Counted from the stretch's first letter, positions 1 to 36,863 are shown. The stretch: 36,863 nucleotides of DNA from a virus (IMGVR_UViG_3300027114_000002:1-36863); one strand, 5' to 3'. A program made the numbers and translations. Notes: generated from the letters alone by a model not told the origin.

Positions 1-99
1 AAGGCATCACGGAGAAGGATGCTATCCTAGCGGCAGTACGCGGTTTAGTTAACCGTGAAATAAGTTCGAGCAATGAACTGACTGATGATGAGATCACGC
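1..99. repeat. Left copy of the 99-bp terminal direct overlap (identical to 36765..36863)
   Basis: I compared the two ends base by base and they match exactly. Confidence 0.95.
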
Positions 100-26872: not shown

Positions 26873-28570
26873 ATGCCACTTTGTCCGCAAATCACAATCA
26901 CTCCAATTACAGTTACTACAACTGGAATGACTCAGACTTCAATCATTCCCATTGTTGCAGCAACAACAGAAGAGACTGACGAACTTCAAACCGAAATCAA
27001 TTCTATTGAAGCATCTGTTAATGGAAAGAATCATATTTACCGACAAGCAACTGCTCCAGATGGATCTGTTTATCCTTTAACTGAAGGCGATGTTTGGTTC
27101 GATACCGATGATGGAAATAAACAATACTATTGGACCGGTTTAGCGTGGGTTTCAGTGCAAGATCTTGGAATTCAAGCAGCAGAAGATGCAGCTGCAGCAG
27201 CTTCATCAGCTGCAGCAGCGGCAACTGCAGCATCAGCAGCAGCAACCGCAGCTGCAACTGCGGCAGCGGCAGCGGCAACTGCGGCGCAAACAACTGCCGA
27301 TGGTAAAAATAAGATCTATCGACAAACAACTATGCCAACTACAGGTCCTTTCACAGAAGGAGATCTTTGGTTTGATACAGATGACGATAACAAGTTTTAT
27401 CGTTACACTAGTGGTGTATTTTCTCCTTTTACTCTAGGAAATGAAGCTCTTGCTTCTTTATCTGCAACTAAACTTACAGCTGGAACTATTGATGCTTCTG
27501 TCATTACAGTCTCAAATATCAATGCAGGAAATATTTCGACTGGTGTACTTAATGCTGATCGTATTCAAGCAGCAAGTATTACTGGAGCAAAATTAGTTGC
27601 TGGCACTATTGAAGCAGTATCAATTGCTGCCGGTACAATTACAGGTGCAAAACTTGCGGTAGGAACTATTGAAGCAGTATCAATTGCTGCCGGTACAATT
27701 ACAGGTGCAAAAATTGCAGCATCAACTATTACAGCAAGCAATATTGCTACAGCAACAATTACTGCTGACCAAATCGCAGGTGCCACAATCACTGCGGCTG
27801 AAATCGCAGCAGAGACCATCACCGCGGCCGAAATCGCAGCAGCAACAATTACCGTTGACAAATTAGTTGCAGGTACGTTAACTGCATTTACTCTTCAAAC
27901 TTCAACTGGCACACGTAGAGTTACAATCTCAGCAGCAAACAACGCAATTTCATTTAGAGAAGCTGGAACAACTGTTGGTTGGGTTGGTCCTGCATCTGTT
28001 GATGGCGTAGTAATTCATTATGGTTCTACTTTTAATGCAAATGTAACCACATATCCAAATGCGTATGTATCTTCAGGCGACGCTAGAATTGCTTTCAGTT
28101 CAACAAAATATGTGCAAGTTAGCACTACTGGAGTTGTTTGCAGCGGTGATTTGTATAGTCTTACAAACTTTTACAATCAAGATACAACTACTACAGCAAA
28201 CGCAGCAAATACGTGGATGTCGGCAACAACTGGATTAACTCGTAGAAGCACTGCATCTAGTCAAAGATACAAAGAAAATATTGTAGATGTCAGAACAATT
28301 ACCGAACTTGATCCAAACAAATTGTTAAGCTTACCAGTTCGTGCATTTAACTATAAAGCGGACTATTTAGATGCTGCAGATGACCGGTCAGGTTTAATGT
28401 TGCCAGGATTTATTGCAGAAGAAGTTGCAGAAGTTTATTCAATAGCTGCTGATAAAAATGATGGTGTAATAGAATCTTGGAATGATCGTTTTGTTGTTCC
28501 AGGCATGTTGGCTTTAATTCAAGATCTACACGTGCGTATACAAACACTTGAGGGGAATGCAAATGGATAA
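26873..28570 (+). CDS. Tail fibre/tip protein with a C-terminal intramolecular chaperone (peptidase S74-like) domain
   Basis: The C-terminus SSQRYKENIVDV...LPVRAFNYKAD...GFIAEEVAEV fits S74. There is a decapeptide-periodic xxITxxxIxx beta-helix-like region, a duplicated GKNxIYRQ...GD(V/L)WFDTDD motif and a poly-Ala linker. Confidence 0.7.
   Translation: MPLCPQITITPITVTTTGMTQTSIIPIVAATTEETDELQTEINSIEASVNGKNHIYRQATAPDGSVYPLTEGDVWFDTDDGNKQYYWTGLAWVSVQDLGIQAAEDAAAAASSAAAAATAASAAATAAATAAAAAATAAQTTADGKNKIYRQTTMPTTGPFTEGDLWFDTDDDNKFYRYTSGVFSPFTLGNEALASLSATKLTAGTIDASVITVSNINAGNISTGVLNADRIQAASITGAKLVAGTIEAVSIAAGTITGAKLAVGTIEAVSIAAGTITGAKIAASTITASNIATATITADQIAGATITAAEIAAETITAAEIAAATITVDKLVAGTLTAFTLQTSTGTRRVTISAANNAISFREAGTTVGWVGPASVDGVVIHYGSTFNANVTTYPNAYVSSGDARIAFSSTKYVQVSTTGVVCSGDLYSLTNFYNQDTTTTANAANTWMSATTGLTRRSTASSQRYKENIVDVRTITELDPNKLLSLPVRAFNYKADYLDAADDRSGLMLPGFIAEEVAEVYSIAADKNDGVIESWNDRFVVPGMLALIQDLHVRIQTLEGNANG
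27606..27713 (+). repeat. 60-bp tandem duplication inside the fibre gene
   Basis: ctattgaagcagtatcaattgctgccggtacaattacaggtgcaaaa occurs at 27606 and again at 27666 without mismatch. Confidence 0.9.
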
Positions 28571-30905: not shown

Positions 30906-31174
30906 TGAACCGCAAAGAGATCTTAGAAGAAGCAACTTATTTAATTTATAACGATCGACAAGCAGATTATGGAACTCCACAACAAAACCATGATCGAATT
31001 GCAAAGCTTTGGAGTGTAGTTTTAGGCATTACCGTAGAACCTTGGCAAGTTGCATTATGCATGAATCAAGTAAAAGTTGCTAGACTAGTCCAATCACCTG
31101 AGAAATTAGATGGTTGGATAGATGGAGCAGCTTATATGGCTATTGGCGGAGAACTGGCTACGGAGGAAAAATGA
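30905..31174 (+). CDS. Small conserved phage protein of unknown function
   Basis: NDRQADYGTPQQNHDRIAKLW...KVARL resembles a widespread phage helical domain. I cannot assign a function. Confidence 0.4.
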   Translation: MNRKEILEEATYLIYNDRQADYGTPQQNHDRIAKLWSVVLGITVEPWQVALCMNQVKVARLVQSPEKLDGWIDGAAYMAIGGELATEEK

Positions 31175-31767
31175 CAACACTCATTGCATTTCAACATGAT
31201 GACTATTGCATCATTGCCGCAGATACCCAAACAACTGGTTATGACATGAGAGCTGATTGTTCTCCAATGGGCAAAATTGCAGAGAATGGCAAGTATTTAG
31301 TTTCTGCTGCAGGTTTAGTCCGAGGCATGAATCTGATCCAACACGCTTTTAATCCACCAGCTCCTCCAAGATCAAAGAATCTAGATAAGTTTATGGTGAC
31401 TCAGTTTGTGCCAAATCTACGCAAAACCTTCGGAATCTCAGGTTATGACATCAAATCTGAAGGCTATCCATCATCTTTTGAGAATGATTTCATAGTTGCC
31501 GTCAATGGAACTATCTACTTTATCGATGAAGTCTATGGATTAGAAAAGACAAAAGACAAGGTTTACACAACAGGAACAGGCGCTAAACTCGCTCTTGGAG
31601 CTGCTCACGCGCTAGGAATTGATGAAGTAGATGATTATGAAGACGCAATTGAAATCTTAGAACAAGCGGTTAAAACTGCCATTCGATTCGATATAAATAG
31701 CGGTGGTCAAGTCCAAGTTGCAGTACAAACAAGAGCTGGAAAGAATCACATTGCATTCCTAGATTAA
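31171..31767 (+). CDS. Proteasome beta/HslV-like Ntn-hydrolase (Thr protease)
   Basis: A GGAGGA RBS precedes the start. After Met removal the protein begins TTLIAF...IIAADTQTT, giving Thr1 and Asp17, with a Lys at position 34. GTGAKLALGAAHAL aligns with HslV GSGGPYAQAAARAL. Confidence 0.7.
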   Translation: MTTLIAFQHDDYCIIAADTQTTGYDMRADCSPMGKIAENGKYLVSAAGLVRGMNLIQHAFNPPAPPRSKNLDKFMVTQFVPNLRKTFGISGYDIKSEGYPSSFENDFIVAVNGTIYFIDEVYGLEKTKDKVYTTGTGAKLALGAAHALGIDEVDDYEDAIEILEQAVKTAIRFDINSGGQVQVAVQTRAGKNHIAFLD

Positions 31768-31782
31768 AAGAACAAAAAAGAA

Positions 31783-31820
31783 GCCCCTGCCTTTCGGCAG
31801 GGGCCTTTTTCTTTTTGTTT
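31783..31820. terminator. Bidirectional rho-independent terminator between convergent genes
   Basis: The hairpin GCCCCTGCC-tttc-GGCAGGGGC is followed by CTTTTTCTTTTTGTTTT and preceded by an A-rich tract (aaagaacaaaaaagaa). Confidence 0.85.
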
Positions 31821-32785
31821 TAGCGAACCATCTCCAAAACTCGATCTGAGAGAGATGTTCCTTGATTCATCATGAATCGCTCGCCTGCAGCAAAATCATC
31901 TGCTGAACGAGTTGTCCGGGTCCATTGTTCGAACTCTGTGAAAGCATTAACAATTCCCCATGCTGTTCCCTTGATATTTTCTTGTGTAGATCCATTCCAG
32001 ATTCCTAGAAGTGTTCCACGGCGTTCTTCAACATTCTTAACTTGACGATCTGTCATGTTTTCTTCGATTGGCATTACATCTTTGACGATTGTCCAGAAGT
32101 CAGAGTTAGCAACTTTCTTATCAAATAGAGAAGATGAAAGAAGGTTGAATTCTTCATTTGACTTAAGAACCACACCTAGAGTTTGACGAACATCTTCGAT
32201 CTTGACATTCATACGAGCTGAATGACGGAAAGAGATAGAAGAAGCATTAGTCCAACGTGTCATTCCGTTTGTGCAGATCAGACGAAGATACTTGATTTCA
32301 AAGCGAAGTGAATCTGTTCCATCGTGAGTATTTGATGCAACTAAAAATGCTTCTACTGGATCAACATTCTTAAGAGTAAGATCAAGAGTGTTTGGAAGCT
32401 TTGCAGCCATAAAGATCTTCTTGCCACCGCGTAATTCACCAGCTGACTGGTAAATCGCACCGGCTTCGTACATAACAGAGTCCACAATATTGACGATGTC
32501 GTTGTTCTGGACAATTGTGTATGTAGGTGAAGTGATTCCAAGAACAGAAGCTGATCCGTCCTTATTGACACGAGTTGTAGCAACTTTGTCTTCAAGCTGA
32601 ACGACTGTCACGCCGCCATTGTTAATTGCTGTAGTTGAAAGTGGAGTGTGCTGAACTTCCCAATCAAGATTTGCATTCTCAAGAACTTGAACTGCAGAGA
32701 TTTGCTCGTCACTTGAATTTACCCATGTTGCTGTGCTGATCCATGGAGCCTTGCGACGTGCTGCGTTCTGGATTTGTACTGACAT
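31820..32785 (-). CDS. DUF932-like phage/plasmid protein (TIGR03299-like), function unknown
   Basis: APWISTATWV...LENANLDWEV...TTRVNKDGSASVLGITSPTYTIVQNND...LRGGKKIFMAAKL...NTHDGTDSLRFEIKYLRLICTNGM matches the pattern I recall for this family. Confidence 0.7.
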   Translation of the reverse strand: MSVQIQNAARRKAPWISTATWVNSSDEQISAVQVLENANLDWEVQHTPLSTTAINNGGVTVVQLEDKVATTRVNKDGSASVLGITSPTYTIVQNNDIVNIVDSVMYEAGAIYQSAGELRGGKKIFMAAKLPNTLDLTLKNVDPVEAFLVASNTHDGTDSLRFEIKYLRLICTNGMTRWTNASSISFRHSARMNVKIEDVRQTLGVVLKSNEEFNLLSSSLFDKKVANSDFWTIVKDVMPIEENMTDRQVKNVEERRGTLLGIWNGSTQENIKGTAWGIVNAFTEFEQWTRTTRSADDFAAGERFMMNQGTSLSDRVLEMVR

Positions 32786-32794
32786 TTTTTGCCT

Positions 32795-32804
32795 CCTGGC
32801 GGTT
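32795..32804 (-). promoter_or_regulatory. Copy A of AACCGCCAGG, fused to the SD of the DUF932-like gene
   Basis: The minus strand reads CAUCAGaaUAAACCGCCAGGAGGcaaaaaAUG. Confidence 0.55.
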
Positions 32805-32807
32805 TAT

Positions 32808-32873
32808 TCTGATGGACTCATCAGCAGTGTCATTTAACACTGGACACTCCTTGCGGAGTGTTTCGTCCTTAGA
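32808..32873 (-). ncRNA. Type II hammerhead self-cleaving ribozyme
   Basis: The minus strand reads ucuaaGGAC-GAAA-CACUCC-gcaa-GGAGUG-UC-CAGUGU-uaaaug-ACACUG-CUGAUGA-GUCC-aucaga. All core nucleotides are present: C3 U4 G5 A6 U7 G8 A9, G12 A13 A14, A15.1-U16.1 and C17. G10.1-C11.1 closes the open stem II, while stems I and III are capped. Confidence 0.85.
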
Positions 32874-33009
32874 TCTTATGAAGATATACTGCGGCAGCTT
32901 GGCAATTTATGCATTCATGCGATTCTGCACCATATTTTCCCCAAGCAACTTCTTGAGTAGTTTTACAAAAAACACATTTTGCAATTACATATTTTGGCAT
33001 AGTAATCAT
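32869..33009 (-). CDS. Small zinc-ribbon protein (46 aa), first cistron of the minus-strand operon
   Basis: An AGGAGGA RBS lies 6 nt before the ATG (33009). MITMPKYVIAKCVFCKT...HECINCQ contains two CxxC pairs. The stop codon lies inside the 5' strand of ribozyme stem II. Confidence 0.55.
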   Translation of the reverse strand: MITMPKYVIAKCVFCKTTQEVAWGKYGAESHECINCQAAAVYLHKI

Positions 33010-33019
33010 TTGATTTCCT

Positions 33020-33029
33020 CCTGGCGGTT
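33020..33029 (-). promoter_or_regulatory. Copy B of AACCGCCAGG, fused to the SD of the zinc-ribbon gene and preceded by a hairpin
   Basis: The minus strand reads GCAACC-aacc-GGUUGC-caUAAACCGCCAGGAGGaaaucaaAUG. Confidence 0.55.
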
Positions 33030-33104
33030 TATGGCAACCGGTTGGTTGCTCATAGGTACATTCAATACTGTCCATCGTCCTTTGTACACTTCATTTGAAA
33101 AGAT

Positions 33105-33133
33105 CTTTTGGAACCTTTTGGAACCTTTTGGAG
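33105..33133. repeat. 10-bp tandem iterons CTTTTGGAAC x2 plus CTTTTGGAG
   Basis: I read these directly. They have helical-turn (10-bp) phasing and lie in the divergent intergenic region. Confidence 0.85.
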
Positions 33134-33191
33134 TCCGTTTAGTCCAGATCGAGCGGCCAGGTTTGTCCCAGGACCACGGACATATCGATCC

Positions 33192-33207
33192 GAGTATATT
33201 TATACTC
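33192..33207. promoter_or_regulatory. Perfect palindrome GAGTATA-tt-TATACTC (operator-like)
   Basis: I read this directly. It lies in the divergent intergenic region. Confidence 0.5.
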
Positions 33208-33225
33208 CACACAAATGGACCCGCG

Positions 33226-33250
33226 TCCTGGTGGATCCTGGTGGTTCTGG
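33226..33250. repeat. 10-bp tandem iterons TCCTGGTGGA, TCCTGGTGGT, TCTGG
   Basis: I read these directly. Confidence 0.8.
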
Positions 33251-33377
33251 CTAATCTGTATGCTGCCGGCCAGAACAGATGTTCTAGTAAATAAGATCTT
33301 AAAGAAACATTTCCACAAATGGTGGATATTTGTCCACATTCAGTGTATATTGGTCCTTGTAAGCAACCGCTTACCTA

Positions 33378-33387
33378 AACCGCCAGG
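33378..33387 (+). promoter_or_regulatory. Copy C of AACCGCCAGG, fused to the SD of the first rightward early gene and preceded by a hairpin
   Basis: The sequence reads GTAAGC-aacc-GCTTAC-cTAAACCGCCAGGAGtaaaaATG. Confidence 0.55.
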
Positions 33388-33394
33388 AGTAAAA

Positions 33395-33610
33395 ATGAAC
33401 ACAATGTCACAAGAACAAACATCATGGAACAACGTTTGTGGACTTCCAGTTAAGTTTCTATTAACTAGAATTGTATTGAACTACGCAAACGGATCTTCAT
33501 CTCTTGAAGAATACACAGAATACTACAATCGCATGACTGTAGAACAAAAGCAATTTGCTGATGACATGGTAATGGAAATTGCAATTGCTACAAAGAAGGA
33601 GATGATCTAA
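33395..33610 (+). CDS. Hypothetical early protein (71 aa)
   Basis: The ATG follows the SD within motif copy C. The upstream part of the track ORF is rejected. Confidence 0.5.
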   Translation: MNTMSQEQTSWNNVCGLPVKFLLTRIVLNYANGSSSLEEYTEYYNRMTVEQKQFADDMVMEIAIATKKEMI

Positions 33611-36363: not shown

Positions 36364-36863
36364 AAATTATGTAGATGTACCACAGCGAATAAAACTGTTT
36401 TATGAGAAATATCCAGAAGGTTCACTGCAAATGGATCCTGATCTGCAGTTTCAGACAGTTGGAGATCAGATTATTGTGATTGGTAGAGCTTATGCTTACC
36501 GTCATCCAGGAGATGAAAAGCCCGGTATTGGTACAGCTCAAGAGTATTTACCAGGAAAAACTAATTTTACTCGTGGCAGTGAGATCCAAAACCTTGAGAC
36601 AAGTTGCTGGGGTAGAGCAATTGGAGCATTAGGTATAGGCATAGATAAAGCAATTGCAAGTAAAGAAGAAGTTGAACTTGCAATGGAACGCAATAAACCA
36701 GATAAAGTCATGATGAAACGTGCAAATCCTGGTTTGAAGCAAATAGTAGAGTTGCTAGGAGCAAAAGGCATCACGGAGAAGGATGCTATCCTAGCGGCAG
36801 TACGCGGTTTAGTTAACCGTGAAATAAGTTCGAGCAATGAACTGACTGATGATGAGATCACGC
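36347..36863 (+). CDS. Putative ssDNA-annealing/recombination protein (Rad52/Sak-like), 5' part that continues at 1..134
   Basis: An AGGGGGA RBS lies upstream. GIGTAQEY...RGSEIQNLETSCWGRAIGALGIGI resembles the annealase core. The gene follows an exonuclease. It is missing from the ORF track because it runs off the window end. Confidence 0.45.
   Translation, partial: MDKRLENYVDVPQRIKLFYEKYPEGSLQMDPDLQFQTVGDQIIVIGRAYAYRHPGDEKPGIGTAQEYLPGKTNFTRGSEIQNLETSCWGRAIGALGIGIDKAIASKEEVELAMERNKPDKVMMKRANPGLKQIVELLGAKGITEKDAILAAVRGLVNREISSSNELTDDEIT
36765..36863. repeat. Right copy of the 99-bp terminal overlap
   Basis: It is identical to 1..99. Confidence 0.95.

Follow-up and report, generated by a model that had tools for sequence, protein, structure and literature searches.

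Type II hammerhead ribozymes beside small, nonconstant genes of phages and prophages have been known since 2011, and they cleave in vitro and, in some cases, in vivo (PMC3088659, PMC6155905, PMC8782182). Hammerheads adjoining small nonconserved phage open reading frames (ORFs) have been catalogued over the same period, and their role has been described as an open question (PMC6155905, PMC6765202). The majority of type II members, but not all of them, contain a pseudoknot between loop I and the 3' tail that is critical for fast cleavage in consensus ribozymes (PMC3088659). A related arrangement has been put to use in RiboJ, a hammerhead joined to a hairpin that normalizes the 5' untranslated region; uncleaved mRNA decays faster (PMC7536230).

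Here, we analyze a single hammerhead in the genome of a tailed phage (IMGVR_UViG_3300027114_000002; the whole stretch of 36,863 nucleotides [nt] that was analyzed is referred to as the window). Compared with the type II family in Rfam (RF02276; Perreault et al. 2011, PMC3088659), this ribozyme has the same core, the same circular permutation, a conserved A on each side of stem II, and an intergenic phage context, but its stem II is 4 bp long instead of the usual 2, the subclass to which it belongs has a short loop I (5 to 6 nt, U-NNN(N)-G), and, in place of a loop I-tail pseudoknot, its 3' tail can pair with the core strand. Like the clustered prophage hammerheads (PMC3088659 Fig. 3; PMC6155905), for which processing of polycistronic transcripts has been proposed as it is here, it adjoins a small nonconserved ORF, whereas it occurs as a single copy and not in an array, and its variable slot and its DUF932 partner are precisely defined. 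The type II hammerheads of Desulfovibrio vulgaris (PMC8782182) have the same topology and likewise have phage-like and hypothetical genes as neighbors; they are chromosomal, were predicted by existing models, and have had both of their fragments detected in cells by cyPhyRNA-seq, and we liken them to the window ribozyme by description only. In RiboJ (a hammerhead plus a 23-nt hairpin, PMC7536230), as at this locus, the order of elements is hammerhead, hairpin, and Shine-Dalgarno (SD) sequence, and cleavage, which is predicted here, removes variable upstream RNA. RiboJ, however, is an engineered type III sTRSV ribozyme with a hairpin separate from the core, whereas the window hairpin makes use of the core strand of the ribozyme itself and so competes with the active fold. 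With its variable upstream ORF, invariant leader, and second hairpin in the predicted 3' product, the locus may be viewed as a natural counterpart of the RiboJ insulator, although an insulating effect would be a matter of analogy. An earlier note on this sequence had called the ribozyme; what the present analysis adds is a defined variable slot, a recurrent pairing of hammerheads with DUF932, and an alternative hairpin supported by covariation.

RESULTS

The ribozyme lies in a two-gene minus-strand unit.

An exact 99-nt terminal direct repeat (window positions 1-99 and 36765-36863) indicates that the window is a complete circular assembly of ~36.76 kb, and its GC content is 41.4%. Pfam and PHROG searches recognize genes for a large terminase, a collagen-like tail fiber, an endolysin, and exonucleases, as befits a tailed phage. 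The ORF map of the complete circle, together with the domain evidence, agrees with the earlier description of the ribozyme as residing in the only minus-strand operon, which consists of the following:

32869..33009, minus strand: upstream cistron (ORF) of 46 amino acids (aa), zinc-ribbon-like CxxC...CxxC, occupant of a hypervariable cassette slot
31820..32785, minus strand: downstream cistron, DUF932 gene of 321 aa (PF06067, E value of 8.5e-42; phrog_1221, E value of 6.4e-63)
31781..31806, either strand: bidirectional intrinsic-terminator-like hairpin at the end of the unit, from a sequence scan

The 46-aa ORF has no relative in Pfam, in PHROG, or by local tblastn, and a DNA similarity search of region 31700-33400 against 50,697 phage records returned no match. 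A simple sigma-70 scan yielded no convincing promoter for the unit, and cotranscription of the two cistrons is assumed because the 83-nt gap between them contains no terminator. The stop codon of the upstream ORF (UAA, 32871-32869) touches the first ribozyme segment, GGAC. At the other end, the SD of DUF932 (AGGAGG, 32797-32792; start codon at 32785) is closer than the distance of about 20 nt originally given: it lies 16 nt after the GUCC segment that ends the ribozyme and 10 nt after the 66-nt stretch that had been delimited.

All elements of a type II hammerhead are present.

Read base by base on the minus strand from 32873 to 32808, the sequence is UCU AA GGAC GAA A-CACUCC-GCAA-GGAGUG-U C CAGUGU-UAAAUG-ACACUG CUGAUGA GUCC AUC AGA. 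We scored it with a covariance model, R1, constructed from 12 hammerheads of other phage contigs, none of which belongs to the clade of the window. The parts of the ribozyme, which apart from the element as a whole and the cleavage site were assigned by direct reading, are as follows:

32813..32869, minus strand: hammerhead element (R1, 59 bits, E value of 1.4e-14; RF02276, 29.2 bits), conserved at 28 related loci
32865..32868, minus strand: 5' strand of stem II, GGAC (11.4-11.1), partner of GUCC at 32814-32817
32861..32864, minus strand: core G12 A13 A14 (32864-32862) and A15.1 (32861), invariant in 138 members of the class described below
32844..32861, minus strand: stem III, A-CACUCC / GGAGUG-U, with loop GCAA (32851-32854) and U16.1 at 32844
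32842..32843, minus strand: predicted cleavage site, after C17 (32843) and before C1.1 (32842), from its position relative to the core
32825..32842, minus strand: stem I, CAGUGU / ACACUG, with loop UAAAUG (32831-32836)
32818..32824, minus strand: core C3 U4 G5 A6 U7 G8 A9 (CUGAUGA)
32814..32817, minus strand: 3' strand of stem II, GUCC (10.1-10.4)

The nucleotides that define the hammerhead core (C3 U4 G5 A6 N7 G8 A9, G12 A13 A14, A15.1-U16.1, and H17) all occur, in order. The pairs adjoining the core (G10.1-C11.1, C1.1-G2.1, and A15.1-U16.1) are standard, and the stems, of 4, 6(7), and 7 bp, contain no mismatch; an intact core, standard core-adjacent pairs, and freedom from multiple mispairs are what the published acceptance rules for hammerhead candidates demand (PMC3088659 methods). 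The topology is that of type II, in that loops close stems I and III while stem II is open, and both the Rfam and the R1 alignments span the element from end to end. With C17 at 32843, the predicted cut falls between 32843 and 32842, exactly where it had been placed. Hammerhead cleavage after C17 leaves a 2',3'-cyclic phosphate on one product and a 5'-OH on the other.

Two finer points of the earlier description are not conserved features. The extension of stem II by UCU/AGA can be formed there, but it is neither conserved nor stabilizing (−22.0 kcal/mol with the extension versus −22.8 kcal/mol for the hammerhead fold), and we reject it: the extension consists of the last sense codon and the stop codon, its 5' triplet varies freely among relatives (GAU, AAA, AAU, GCU, and others), and forming it costs energy. 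Similarly, the stem III loop is of the GNRA type in the window (GCAA) but varies in relatives among GCAA, GUAA, AUAA, and UUCG.

Covariance models differ in their response to the element.

Scans of the whole window against Rfam at gathering thresholds reported no hammerhead, and the below-threshold match described next, obtained on 301 nt, likewise disappears when the whole window is scanned. The Rfam search that had been suggested as a check gives a score of 29.2 bits with Hammerhead_II (RF02276; E value of 3.7e-4 on 301 nt), which is below the gathering score of 37; the deficit arises because the model expects a 2-bp stem II and a pseudoknot tail and treats GUCCA as a 5-nt insertion. Abandonment of the call had been tied to a score under the gathering threshold combined with a lack of stem conservation in related phages, and since only the first of these is observed, the call stands. 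R1, applied to both strands of the window with filters off, gives the element 59 bits, a value to which stems I and III and the spacing contribute the independent information, as the R1 seeds were fetched by a pattern made from the core and stem II of the window ribozyme. The next-best R1 match in the genome reaches only 11 bits; a second hammerhead is thereby rejected, and the genome contains exactly one such ribozyme. Moreover, the descriptor GACGAAAC..GTC..CTGATGAGTC has one match in the window and none in 100 shuffled versions of it.

The loop I-tail pseudoknot typical of the family is absent: at most 2 bp can form in the window (3 if the last C of stem II is included), against a criterion of at least 4 bp, and among the matches listed for the wider class, pseudoknots of at least 4 bp occur in 14 members when 16.7 are expected, which is no excess. 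Without this pseudoknot, some other tertiary contact must replace the published type II one; the U...G ends of loop I, which are conserved, and the A residues that flank stem II are candidates.

The ribozyme is retained at related DUF932 loci.

Searching with the DUF932 protein retrieved 35 related viral contigs, 28 of which include DNA upstream of the gene, and in all 28, a ribozyme occupies the same place. Among the 26 closest contigs, the ribozyme is invariant except in loop III (GCAA, GUAA, or AUAA). In two others, L027 (80% protein identity) and L043, stem I has changed from CAGUGU/ACACUG to UGACGU/ACGUCA through four compensatory pairs, and loop III of L043 is UUCG. A type II hammerhead also lies ahead of the more-distant DUF932 genes in L046, L110, and L086; all three stems differ there, although the UAAAUG loop I is common to the window, L046, and L110. 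Because conservation of the ribozyme within the 26 closest relatives is no higher than that of the adjacent DUF932 coding sequence, selection on it is evident from the more-distant relatives and from the wider class and not from the clade itself. The completeness of the motif, the 59-bit score of the independent model, its presence at 28 of 28 related loci, and the covariation of its stems together bear out the original call of a complete type II hammerhead between the two cistrons.

The closest DUF932 proteins of cultured phages are less than 35% identical, and three such loci (from an Arthrobacter phage, a Gordonia phage, and a fecal phage) contain no hammerhead, such that the association between hammerhead and DUF932 is lineage limited. 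In a scan of genome contigs, there was no match to the window's own ribozyme and only two to the subclass with the alternative hairpin, both in one Acidobacteria MAG. Our literature search, which covered sources other than the hammerhead and twister gene-association lists (PMC4509812, PMC3867598), found no paper naming both DUF932 and a ribozyme.

The ribozyme bounds a hypervariable gene slot.

In an alignment of 29 sequences (the window and its 28 relatives), column identity is 0.56 to 0.70 across the small ORF and rises to 0.98 to 0.99 from the ribozyme onward, a level that continues through the leader, the SD, and DUF932. The slot is occupied in the relatives by at least eight unrelated ORFs of 46 to ~104 aa, and at most loci, the stop codon of the cassette exactly adjoins GGAC. 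On its right-hand side, then, this hypervariable slot for accessory genes has the ribozyme as a fixed boundary, which agrees, as do the small variable ORFs, with published remarks on phage hammerheads (PMC3088659, PMC6155905). Copies of one leader lie before DUF932, at the left boundary of the slot, and before the first gene of the divergent plus-strand unit:

32789..32807, minus strand: invariant leader AUAAACCGCCAGGAGGCAA, with the DUF932 SD AGGAGG at 32792-32797, one of three copies
33014..33032, minus strand: second copy of leader and SD (repeat AUAAACCGCCAGGAGG, 19 nt), before the variable small ORF, left boundary of the slot
33376-33395, plus strand: third copy of the repeat, before the first plus-strand gene at 33395

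This 19-nt leader with SD (AUAAACCGCCAGGAG) precedes the first genes of the two divergent units as well as DUF932, and it could be a shared translational operator or merely a strong ribosome-binding site that has been reused.

The commonest cassette family (MGIAIGTT...AGYR, ~60 aa) is also found outside the slot, directly upstream of an unrelated hammerhead in L134 (3792-3974) and downstream of DUF932 in L003 (3124-3303), which suggests that the small genes are exchanged among slots bounded by hammerheads.

Hammerheads with a 4-bp stem II form a large class in viral contigs.

A search pattern that kept this core and stem II matches at least 119 stretches of viral contigs, corresponding to at least 121 distinct ribozymes, and among the matches listed, R1 makes 218 hits in 0.95 Mb of contigs that had themselves been fetched by the class pattern. 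When 138 distinct members from the matches listed are placed in a model-fitted alignment, 99.4% of stem cells are paired, compared with 29 to 43% in slid controls, and double-sided changes are seen in 14 of the 17 stem pairs. These are spread over the whole structure: the pairs of stem II covary (GC/AU and AU/UA/CG/GC), five of seven pairs in stem III show compensatory changes, and all six pairs of stem I covary.

Among the matches listed, an upstream stop codon lies −1 to +3 nt from the ribozyme in 107 of 143 distinct members, and an SD-preceded start codon follows the ribozyme by 10 to 35 nt in 110 of the 143, the median downstream ORF being 107 aa long. The window, with gaps of 0 nt to the stop codon and 28 nt to the start codon, fits both ranges and is archetypal. 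Most proteins encoded downstream of class members have no Pfam domain; among the matches listed, the family that most often comes next is DUF932 (7 of 132), ahead of SNF2, AAA_5, ArdC, resolvase, and others.

At the Rfam gathering score, only 4 of the more than 50 R1 matches in nine array loci are recovered. Members with a 4-bp stem II are, hence, underdetected, though bona fide RF02276 members are found alongside them in the arrays: array neighbors of class members do exceed the RF02276 gathering score. That the gathering score misses most of a subclass this abundant in viral contigs is a practical gap.

Several contigs (L133, L118, L130, L111, L036, and L141) contain arrays of 7 to at least 13 type II hammerheads, about one per small gene, within a few kilobases. 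Copies within an array often have stem I or stem III sequences in common, and most score below the Rfam gathering threshold.

The 3' tail can pair with the core strand.

The earlier note had also pointed to a second pairing, between the core and the sequence that follows the ribozyme, that excludes the active one:

32809..32824, minus strand: alternative hairpin CUGAUG-AGUC-CAUCAG, incompatible with stem II and the active core

This hairpin does exist in nearest-neighbor calculations and in fact belongs to the minimum-free-energy fold (−25.6 kcal/mol versus −22.8 kcal/mol for the hammerhead fold). Its AUCAG tail has been retained in every relative, L027 and L043 among them; in the class, roughly one-quarter of the members possess it (31 of 121 distinct ribozymes among the matches listed). 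Helices of at least 5 bp between tail and core strand occur in 40 of the members listed, when shuffled sequences lead one to expect ~7; likewise, among the matches listed, a tail-to-core hairpin of −5 kcal/mol or lower can form in 70 of 191 members versus 15.5 expected from shuffles. N7, the only core position that is free to vary, covaries with the tail base facing it. Among the matches listed, the combination of the two is U/A in 35 cases, C/G in 9, U/G in 2, C/A in 1, and U/U in 1 (Fisher P = 3.8e-7, from counts that ignore phylogeny), and the contigs that supply the C/G cases number six, with stem II sequences that differ and with pairing in three registers. This covariation, again in counts that ignore phylogeny, constitutes direct evidence that selection acts on the pairing itself and not on the sequence alone. 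We found no mention of a competing tail-core hairpin in the hammerhead literature searched.

Other pairings of this kind were also encountered. In L046 and L110, upstream of DUF932, the alternative pairing is UGACGA/UCGUUA. A second type of tail, AG(N3-6)GACU(C/U), is present at, for example, L052 (3437-3499), L119 (2525-2592), and L042 (680-734); it is complementary to (U)GAGUC, that is, to A9 and the 3' strand of stem II, with the 6-bp form reaching U7-G8, and would form an alternative hairpin in another register.

DISCUSSION

Proposed function of the ribozyme.

We consider that the type II hammerhead of the window is functional, that it is situated between the cistrons of a two-gene phage transcript, and that it provides DUF932 with a constant leader, a reading to which we assign a probability of roughly 80%. 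Its most likely function, judged from sequence comparisons, is intercistronic mRNA processing that would give DUF932 a constant, hairpin-capped leader with a 5'-OH end. The transcript would fold into a three-way junction made up of stem II (GGAC/GUCC), stem III with its GCAA loop, and stem I with its UAAAUG loop, and would cleave itself after C17 (32843), constitutively or semiconstitutively. The upstream product, the mRNA of the variable small ORF, would have the stem III hairpin at its 3' end and terminate in a 2',3'-cyclic phosphate; the downstream product would be the DUF932 mRNA, with a 5'-OH immediately at the foot of stem I. The freed strand, CUGAUGAGUCC, could then pair with the conserved AUCAG tail to give another hairpin next to that of stem I; energy calculations on the predicted 3' product yield two neighboring hairpins, followed by the SD region. 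In this manner, the leader and SD of DUF932, 57 nt long and capped by two hairpins, would stay the same irrespective of the cassette gene upstream. Cleavage itself, cotranscription of the cistrons, and effects on stability and translation are what we infer from the comparisons above, and because nearest-neighbor energies favor the inactive fold by 2.8 kcal/mol, the active fraction could be small.

Alternative explanations.

The features that set this ribozyme apart from the Rfam family (a score below the gathering threshold, the lack of a pseudoknot, and a stable competing fold) are those that one might expect of a chance match or an inactive relic, in which the hammerhead consensus is present without cleavage and the hairpins are simply mRNA structure. 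We regard this as very improbable in view of the E value of 1.4e-14 from the independent model, the descriptor's failure to match any of 100 shuffles, the retention of every invariant nucleotide in all relatives while the stems covary, and compliance with the published acceptance rules for hammerheads (PMC3088659 methods). Conservation of the region might instead be due to an internal promoter driving DUF932, since a sigma-70-like sequence, ATGACA-16-CAGAAT (32833-32806, minus strand), matches the consensus at 9 of 12 positions in the scan. Yet the region has four such sites when 5.0 are expected by chance, the −10 element of L027 is CAGAAC and has lost the essential final T, its −35 element is altered by the covariation in stem I, and class members differ freely at these positions without loss of pairing, all of which makes the promoter scarcely credible.

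More substantial are the two explanations that accept the RNA structure or its boundaries but assign them another role. T4-type phages possess repeated regulatory cassettes that serve as comparable exchange arms, and the block of ribozyme and leader could be, in the main, a homology arm for swapping small-ORF cassettes, with RNA cleavage secondary. Consistent with such a recombination boundary, the breakpoint between variable and invariant sequence is no more than ~13 nt from the 5' edge of the ribozyme at all 28 loci and exactly at the edge in most, the breakpoint on the other side of the cassette is the repeated leader, hammerhead copies within one contig have common stems (L086, L036, and L111), and the commonest cassette protein turns up in L134 as well, immediately ahead of an unrelated hammerhead. 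But any conserved flanking sequence could act as a homology arm, whereas the strict catalytic core and the massive stem covariation reflect selection on RNA structure beyond DNA identity; an exchange role would also be compatible with RNA processing and may be its by-product, and as the principal function, we find it unlikely. The main rival to intercistronic processing is the regulated conformational switch that the earlier note had raised as a possibility. In such a switch, CUGAUG/CAUCAG would represent an off state, cleavage and the ratio of gene products would be conditional and not constitutive, and a terminating ribosome, a protein, temperature, or Mg2+ might shift the RNA to the active fold. 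The alternative hairpin is indeed the minimum-free-energy fold, the whole clade has kept it, and class members show both the covariation of N7 with its tail partner and pairing that survives shifts of register. Furthermore, a stop codon adjoins stem II in 75% of the class, such that a terminating ribosome would occlude GGAC and favor the alternative fold. Against this, no trigger or ligand-binding element is identifiable, about two-thirds of class members have no such hairpin, and nearest-neighbor energies leave out the tertiary and Mg2+ stabilization of the active core; moreover, a structured leader after cleavage explains the same hairpin equally well. A brake or switch acting before cleavage and a leader structure acting after it are equally compatible with the data, and we hold regulated switching, like the triggers suggested for it, to be doubtful though worth serious attention.

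A possible two-state subclass.

Returning to intercistronic processing by a functional hammerhead, we tentatively suggest an extension to the subclass with a 4-bp stem II: that evolution has shaped the tail, whose base covaries with N7, for pairing with the core strand of the same RNA. One molecule might then act as a cleavage element and, following cleavage or in its place, as a coaxial double-hairpin 5' cap. Such ribozymes could be natural, self-contained insulators or switches, upstream of which arbitrary accessory genes are plugged in ahead of conserved genes, such as DUF932, a generalization about which we are similarly cautious. If it is true, the two-state subclass would offer the first mechanistic handle on what phage hammerheads do. 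The locus described here is an unusually clean natural experiment, combining one ribozyme in a complete genome, at least eight interchangeable upstream genes, a downstream leader and DUF932 gene that do not vary, and a competing hairpin for which covariation reveals selection.

Additional features of the genome.

Convergent with DUF932 at the common terminator is a gene for an HslV/proteasome-like peptidase (31114-31767, plus strand; phrog_1040, E value of 1e-23, with a weak match to Pfam Proteasome). Subthreshold Rfam matches (isrG at 38.6 bits and several miRNA precursor models) fall at 27188-27285 on the minus strand and also at 27654-27845, within the tail fiber gene (26873-28570), and are probably due to a long hairpin or repeat in the coding sequence. 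Finally, the intergenic region between the divergent units (33035-33210) is noncoding and conserved at 0.9 to 0.96 among relatives, and it contains repeats and palindromes that are probably promoter or operator elements:

33100-33129: tandem CCAAAAGGTT repeats
33192-33207: palindrome GAGTATA-AA-TATACTC
33035-33044: palindrome CAACCGGTTG
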